Assembly (NCBI RefSeq): GCF_041886205.1 | Contig: NZ_CP169029.1 | Direction: 5' to 3' (one strand) | Source of the DNA: Escherichia coli | GTDB lineage: Bacteria; Pseudomonadota; Gammaproteobacteria; Enterobacterales; Enterobacteriaceae | Length of the DNA stretch: 64,000 nt | Part shown: positions 45,203-45,752 of the stretch, piece after piece | How the letters are laid out: each line of letters opens with the position of its first letter | Numbering within the stretch: the first letter of the stretch is position 1 | Notes under the pieces: generated by a model | What the model saw: only the letters and a program-made list of their open reading frames with translations | What the model was told of the DNA's origin: nothing | The model's database searches: none | Program-made: the position numbers and the translations under genes

Positions 45203-45609
45203 AAGAAAACATCCCCTGAGAGTTTAATTTTCGTCAAGATGCGTGGCGGACAATCCCCTGCCAGCGAAACGTTATCTTCCTGCTCCAGGTTTGCGACAAT
45301 TTGCTGCGTCGCAAAAAAGCAAACGTTTAGCTCCGCGCATACAAAACGGGTGGTAAAAAAAGCAAACGATTATCCGGCGATCATAGCGGCTTTTTCAACC
45401 GAAGTTTGCTGCTTTTTTCTCTTTTATTGTCTTGACGATGAAAAACCAGGCAATTGATGCGCAAACGTTATCGTCGGTGCGCAAGATTGCAGCGTTATCG
45501 AGCCGTATACCGTTCAGGATTGCGATAAAAAATCGTCTGAGATGACAAAAATATTGCGGTTAAAAAGTATACTTTTACACTGGCGAAGAAACGTCGGTGA
45601 CATACAATT

Positions 45610-45752
45610 AAAGCATCAACACCAACCGGAACCTCCACCACGTGCTCGAATGAGGTGTGTTGACGTCGGGGGAAACCCTCCTGTGTACCAGCGGGATAGA
45701 GAGAAAGACAAAGACCGGAAAACAAACTAAAGCGCCCTTGTGGCGCTTTAGT
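45610..45752 (+). ncRNA. ryjA: Candidate small RNA RyjA, convergent with soxR and sharing its terminator hairpin
   Basis: Candidate -10 TACAAT near 45603, and an intrinsic terminator (AAAGCGCC-CTTG-TGGCGCTTT + T-rich) at 45729-45758 overlapping the soxR stop; position between ghxP and soxR. Boundaries approximate. Confidence 0.35.

Follow-up and report, generated by a model that had tools for sequence, protein, structure and literature searches.

The ryjA (sraL) small RNA gene and its terminator shared with convergent soxR in the ghxP–soxR interval of Escherichia coli

Introduction

The small RNA SraL, also known as RyjA, was reportedly described by Argaman (2001) and Wassarman (2001), with later work by Silva (2013, 2019). 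Its gene has been annotated since 2001, has an Rfam family, and has published regulators and targets. A comparable arrangement is GadY–gadX, in which an Hfq-associated stationary-phase small RNA is convergent with, and overlaps, the 3′ end of a regulator gene, and RNase III is implicated. Convergent E. coli gene pairs are also said to share overlapping bidirectional terminators, as reportedly mapped by SEnd-seq (Ju et al. 2019). For other E. coli pairs, collision-driven termination at such overlapping terminators has been shown in a preprint (Wang et al., bioRxiv 10.1101/2022.10.23.513370).

SraL/RyjA is a ∼140-nt stationary-phase RNA made by RpoS-RNA polymerase (PMC3753932). SraL represses tig by pairing just upstream of the Shine–Dalgarno sequence, as confirmed by compensatory mutations, and it uses its 5′ part for target pairing and not the region that overlaps soxR (PMC3753932). 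In the part of PMC6582626 that summarises Silva 2019, SraL is described as pairing with the rho leader and so preventing premature Rho-dependent termination. Hfq stabilises SraL about 3-fold, whereas polyadenylation by PAP I is followed by decay aided by the degradosome and PNPase (PMC2190706). A longer SraL species accumulates without RNase III, and the authors proposed cleavage in the terminator that overlaps soxR; the overlap of the SraL and soxR terminators was already noted in 2007 (PMC2190706). Polyadenylation of full-length RyjA is also seen in E. coli, and a pcnB mutant has it among its most strongly increased RNAs (PMC5389530). Here we establish the identity and boundaries of ryjA in an E. 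coli sequence, together with its conserved structure, its synteny and the sharing of its terminator with soxR.

Results and Discussion

Identity and boundaries of ryjA

Positions are those of the window, i.e. the whole 64,000-nt stretch of E. coli DNA that was analysed. The gap between ghxP and soxR had been put at ∼545 bp in a preliminary description made from the sequence alone, and the CDS ends of the two genes, from the list of open reading frames (ORFs) and a reading of the sequence, give 45203..45747, 545 bp. The genes concerned are:

43853..45202, − strand: ghxP CDS, start codon end at 45202
45615..45755, + strand: ryjA (sraL) small RNA gene, 141 nt, placed by the RF01408 match, the MG1655 annotation and conservation
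45748..46212, − strand: soxR CDS, convergent with ryjA, stop-codon end at 45748

The proposal that this is the RyjA locus was borne out by two comparisons. First, an Rfam scan of the whole window returned a full-length match to RF01408 (sraL), scoring 153.3 bits (gathering score 39, E 1e-34) over model positions 1–142 of 142. When 45150..45800 was rescanned permissively, no other RNA family came up in the gap at E ≤ 1; the rescan also matched the terminator part of the sraL model weakly on the reverse strand, because the terminator is palindromic. Second, 651 nt of the window align to E. coli K-12 MG1655 with 100% identity, and in the alignment to annotated ryjA, suggested earlier as a check, the MG1655 ncRNA (b4459; 4277926-4278066, − strand) falls exactly on 45615..45755 (+). 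The annotated 3′ end of ryjA overlaps the soxR CDS by 8 nt, the last 8 nt of soxR.

A small RNA had been placed across the whole of 45203..45752. It does lie in that interval, but ryjA is 45615..45755 only: it fills the last 141 bases, or the last quarter, of the reported interval and runs 3 nt past 45752. The 558-bp interval was found in 5420 of 5426 complete E. coli genomes. Transcripts from the + strand, on whose existence the preliminary description had made its call depend, have been reported from both E. coli and Salmonella (PMC3753932, PMC2190706, PMC5389530).

We are highly confident that 45615..45755 (+) is E. coli ryjA (sraL), a 141-nt trans-acting small RNA with a terminator shared with soxR. 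It is the same gene as the described SraL/RyjA (RF01408; b4459), with identical sequence, coordinates, soxR-convergent synteny and terminator, and no difference was found. The call made from sequence alone is thereby verified and exact boundaries are added. The locus is an already known, ordinary feature; as a discovery it has little significance, since its regulators, its targets and the soxR terminator overlap are already published.

The terminator shared with soxR

Two features lie at the junction of ryjA and soxR:

45724..45754, both strands: shared bidirectional intrinsic terminator, 13-bp stem, loop CTTGT, U-rich tails
45748..45750 (reverse complement), − strand: soxR stop codon TAA, within the 3′ arm of the terminator stem

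The hairpin sequence first quoted for this site, AAAGCGCCCTTGTGGCGCTTT, has a single occurrence in the window, at 45729..45749 (0 expected in shuffles). It forms the core of an inverted repeat whose arms (45724-45736 / 45742-45754) match perfectly over 13 bp around a 5-nt loop. A terminator scan of the + strand found 6 G–C pairs in the stem, followed by a T-run. The RNA folds at −23.8 kcal/mol on the + strand (z = −4.1) and at −28.1 kcal/mol on the − strand (z = −6.1), with 0 of 200 shuffles as good in either case; the fold of the whole RyjA RNA is modestly better than shuffles (z = −1.9). A 10-bp G+C-containing core (CUAAAGCGCC/GGCGCUUUAG) is followed by the U-rich tail UUUUGUUC on the + strand or UUUGUUUU on the − strand, in agreement with the flanking T-runs reported earlier for both strands. 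The A-tract on either side is the U-tract of the opposite strand, and this reciprocal layout is typical of intrinsic terminators that work both ways. Only the + strand site was flagged by the simple scan; the − strand site was left unflagged because the scan counts the A–U extension as stem, with only 4 T in the 8-base tail window.

With stable folds on both strands and the soxR stop codon within the 3′ arm, a bidirectional terminator overlapping that stop, as the preliminary description had it, is what we find. The hairpin is the terminator of ryjA and, read on the other strand, of convergent soxR.

Conservation of RyjA and its neighbourhood

Species-representative genomes were searched with a pattern combining two conserved RyjA blocks, which gave 43 loci; the two blocks are invariant by construction in the resulting alignment. 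Apart from two evidently mislabelled records, all loci were from Enterobacteriaceae, including Escherichia, Salmonella, Citrobacter, Enterobacter, Klebsiella, Raoultella, Leclercia, Lelliottia, Trabulsiella, Pseudocitrobacter, Pluralibacter, Silvania, Huaxiibacter and others. The two exceptions, a ‘Bacillota MAG’ (L018, JAEWQV010000038.1) and ‘Chryseobacterium sp. 18061’ (L034, CACSKA010000007.1), each carry an enterobacterial ghxP-ryjA-soxR locus, in the former with ryjA, SoxR and GhxP identical to E. coli, and look like contamination or mis-binning in public records.

The consensus structure of the 38 distinct RyjA sequences was very close to that of Rfam, with 34 pairs and 98.9% of cells paired, versus 34-55% in register-shifted (slid) controls. 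Seven pairs had changed on both sides, a count that 0 of 500 shuffles reached, in statistics drawn from related sequences with two blocks fixed by the search pattern. This covariation was concentrated in two internal helices, the 5′ helix and the central helix. Nine of the 12 modelled pairs of the terminator stem never vary, and one compensatory change (U–A to G–C) was seen there, in Pseudocitrobacter. The 5′ part also contains a largely unpaired segment:

45624..45636, + strand: AACCGGAACCTCC, RyjA nt 10-22, in upper case (highly conserved) in the Rfam consensus

The invariance of AACCGGAACCTCC in our own alignment is forced, as the segment is part of the search pattern.

Downstream of RyjA, soxR was convergent in 42 of the 43 loci. 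Upstream, ghxP is the divergent neighbour (at −413) in Escherichia and a few other genomes. In most non-Escherichia genera a gene for a 222-223-aa GST-like protein stands between ghxP and RyjA, about −1090 to −120 from the RyjA start (loci L003-L044, e.g. L012, L005 and L041); Escherichia, Trabulsiella and some Citrobacter lack it. Indeed, the upstream neighbour of Salmonella sraL is a GST-like gene and not ghxP (PMC3753932). The E. coli gap was considered as a remnant of this gene and the idea rejected: tblastn of seven such proteins against the gap gave no significant match (best E 0.07), the single stronger match being a spurious ORF over conserved ghxP upstream DNA.

The position of the soxR stop codon relative to the terminator fell into four classes:

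Inside the 3′ arm of the stem: 10 of 43 sequences
2-5 nt beyond the arm, within the RyjA T-tail: 20 of 43 sequences
11-52 nt away: 10 of 43 sequences, including Salmonella and Enterobacter
More than 100 nt away: 3 of 43 sequences, with inserted sequence between

The stop-in-stem class comprises Escherichia species and Citrobacter amalonaticus, which share the SoxR C-terminus ...EDEQN, and two other genomes with different C-terminal extensions that also end in N. The shared soxR/RyjA terminator is ancestral and widespread in Enterobacteriaceae, and the stop-in-stem arrangement is a derived minority state. It probably arises from the invariant stem sequence CUAAAG, which would supply an in-frame UAA once an upstream stop is lost. 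That terminator sharing is general and stop-in-stem a minority state is a small comparative addition to what was known of this locus.

In the three most distant cases, the extra sequence between the RyjA terminator and soxR spans +140..+270 (L011), +140..+240 (L023) and +140..+655 (L033), counted from the RyjA start. RyjA itself is unchanged in all three, and the insertions in L011 and L023 contain REP-like GCCGGATAAG / CTTACCCGGCCTAC motifs.

The ryjA promoter and the predicted function of RyjA

A promoter was read directly upstream of the RNA:

45580..45608, + strand: ryjA promoter, from a reading of the sequence, with blocks conserved across genera

It consists of a −35-like CTGGCG (45580-45585), a 17-nt spacer and a −10 TACAAT (45603-45608), with an A/T-rich discriminator, TAAAGC, between the −10 and the +1 at A45615. 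Across genera, promoter blocks of the form CTGGC(G/A)A and TA(C/G)A(A/C)T-TAAAG are kept, and the −10 with its discriminator is correctly spaced. A scan with the sigma-70 consensus did not flag the ryjA promoter, because its −35 is weak. We also considered a sigma-54 reading of the conserved CTGGC block and rejected it by eye: a −12 element is missing, the spacing does not fit and the bases in between vary. The Salmonella SraL promoter is of the RpoS type, based on deletion and complementation, lacZ fusions and ChIP (PMC3753932), and by analogy we infer that the E. coli ryjA promoter is RpoS-dependent.

Upstream of the −35 lies an A/T-rich block (45544-45567), GACAAAAATATTGCGGTTAAAAAG in E. 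coli. A block of the GAAAAAAT-TTCGGCTAAAAA type is kept from genus to genus at the homologous position (−70 to −45), regardless of which gene lies upstream, and it may serve as an UP element or as a site for a regulator.

In the proposed mechanism, transcription would start at A45615 from an RpoS-type promoter with a weak −35 and end at the intrinsic terminator common to soxR. RyjA would accumulate in stationary phase, be stabilised by Hfq and be degraded after polyadenylation by PAP I, as indicated mostly by Salmonella experiments. Pairing with the tig leader would reduce trigger factor, and pairing with the rho leader would prevent premature Rho-dependent termination. Regulation of tig and rho was demonstrated in Salmonella and not in the present E. 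coli sequence, so that E. coli RyjA is presumed, by analogy, to act on the same targets and in the same way as Salmonella SraL.

Exact 7-mer complements to both targets are present in E. coli: RyjA nt 28-34 (GUGCUCG) with tig −29..−23, nt 13-19 (within AACCGGAACCTCC) with tig −74..−68, and nt 2-8 with the rho leader. These tig and rho complements are not above chance, two tig 7-mers arising in 15% of shuffles, and the RNAduplex output for target pairing consisted mostly of long looped artefacts. The 7-mers are consistent with the published mechanism and do not constitute a test of it. In the examined parts of the Term-seq supplement of PMC7815308, there were no rows for ryjA, sraL, soxR or ghxP and no matching coordinates.

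A possible effect of RyjA on soxR in cis

RyjA might, in addition to its trans role, act in cis on soxR, which we regard as possible but doubtful. RNA polymerases on ryjA and soxR could collide at their common hairpin, each fixing where the other's transcript ends; alternatively, RyjA and soxR mRNA, whose 3′ ends are perfectly complementary over roughly 37 nt, could pair there and be cut by RNase III. Either route would couple the fate of soxR mRNA to RpoS-driven RyjA synthesis. Such a role would fit the convergent layout, with the shared hairpin within 60 nt in 40 of 44 sequences, and the near invariance of the terminator stem even where other helices vary. It would also fit the longer SraL that accumulates in an rnc mutant, with cleavage proposed in the terminator overlapping that of soxR (PMC2190706), and the collision-driven termination of other E. 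coli pairs (bioRxiv 10.1101/2022.10.23.513370). Against it, our literature searches found no report of a RyjA effect on soxR, and RyjA is still conserved in the 3 lineages in which soxR lies more than 100 nt from the hairpin. Both 3′ ends are held in very stable intramolecular hairpins, which disfavours intermolecular pairing, and with U-tracts on both strands the hairpin looks able to terminate intrinsically with no need for collision. These stable hairpins and U-tracts suggest that each direction can terminate alone.

The terminators of the preprint (10.1101/2022.10.23.513370), from which the ryjA/soxR pair is absent, likewise place one hairpin, read on both strands, between convergent units with overlapping 3′ ends. 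According to the preprint they are unlike intrinsic terminators and require polymerase collisions, whereas the ryjA/soxR hairpin and U-tract look canonical in both directions, which argues against collision dependence here. By analogy with these E. coli overlapping bidirectional terminators, it is plausible that convergent transcription influences soxR 3′-end formation, as the preliminary description suggested.

RyjA–soxR resembles GadY–gadX in its convergent 3′ overlap, Hfq, stationary phase and RNase III. In GadY the overlap is the functional pairing site, whereas the demonstrated targets of RyjA are trans-encoded and its 5′ part does the pairing.

A stronger proposal, which we consider improbable, is that the shared hairpin is a regulatory node and not a passive two-way terminator, with strong RpoS-driven ryjA transcription in stationary phase altering how soxR mRNA ends or decays. 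Head-on polymerase collision or RNase III cutting of a ∼37-bp RyjA:soxR 3′ duplex could provide the route. If true, the general stress response and the superoxide response would thereby be connected. In Escherichia, judging from ribosome footprints in general, a ribosome at the soxR UAA could cover the 5′ arm and transiently prevent the hairpin from forming. If a ribosome does melt the hairpin there, soxR termination and read-through antisense to ryjA would therefore be sensitive to translation. Whether RyjA affects soxR expression in cis is a modest and directly testable question.

Coding and terminator-only alternatives

Three ORFs overlap ryjA:

AUG 45650 to TAA 45728-45730, + strand: 26-codon ORF within RyjA
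45542..45730, + strand: 62-codon ORF, starting upstream of the ryjA transcription start
45495..45761, − strand: 88-aa ‘hypothetical protein’ WP_001325981.1

That the + strand encodes a small protein is very improbable. Both + strand ORFs exist mechanically, but conservation across the locus follows the paired helices and not codons, and in neither ORF are the AUG and frame conserved. Most genera have CUG, ACG or CCG in place of the AUG of the 26-codon ORF, indels shift its frame, and on reading the sequence no Shine–Dalgarno was seen upstream; the 62-codon ORF has its start ahead of the transcription start.

We give equally little credence to the − strand protein, which is annotated by PGAP in E. 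coli CP53 and whose ORF is present in the window. It appears in 1 of 15 listed records, is antisense to the conserved structured RNA, has its start within the 3′ end of soxR and crosses the terminator; WP_001325981.1 in CP53 is probably a spurious gene call.

The reading in which the hairpin is simply the soxR terminator, with nothing functional made from the + strand and the remaining gap as spacer, has next to no chance of being right: it fits the position of the hairpin at the soxR 3′ end and the RefSeq/PGAP annotation of most E. coli genomes, which list only soxR here, but it is refuted by the 105 nt upstream of the hairpin, whose conservation extends across genera, with helices that covary and a promoter that is likewise kept, and which match the curated sRNA model (RF01408), and by the transcript itself, detected repeatedly in published northern blots.

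The ghxP upstream region and other features of the window

The remaining ∼410 bp of the reported interval are the ghxP regulatory region:

45203..45579, − strand: ghxP upstream region (promoter and leader), outside the small RNA, with PurR-box-like motifs
45263-45278, 45317-45332, 45360-45375 and 45459-45474: PurR-box-like motifs in the ghxP upstream region

The PurR-box-like cores read GCAAACGWT or CGAAACGTT; two of the four sites form an inverted pair, and the exact 9-mer core occurs 3 times in 150 bp. A search with the full PurR-box consensus, allowing 3 mismatches, gave a single site, no more than chance predicts over the whole window. A PurR motif ahead of ghxP, at which binding had not been demonstrated before, is described in PMC6892915.

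Elsewhere in the window, Rfam naRNA4 (RF02564) gave four matches of 69-107 bits, at 4903-4979 and 5003-5079 (+) and at 7555-7635 and 38306-38377 (−), which we take to be REP/BIME-type repeats. SECIS_2 (RF01988) matched at 25290-25344 (+) with 87 bits against a gathering score of 70, a selenocysteine insertion element, presumably inside a selenoprotein gene such as fdhF.
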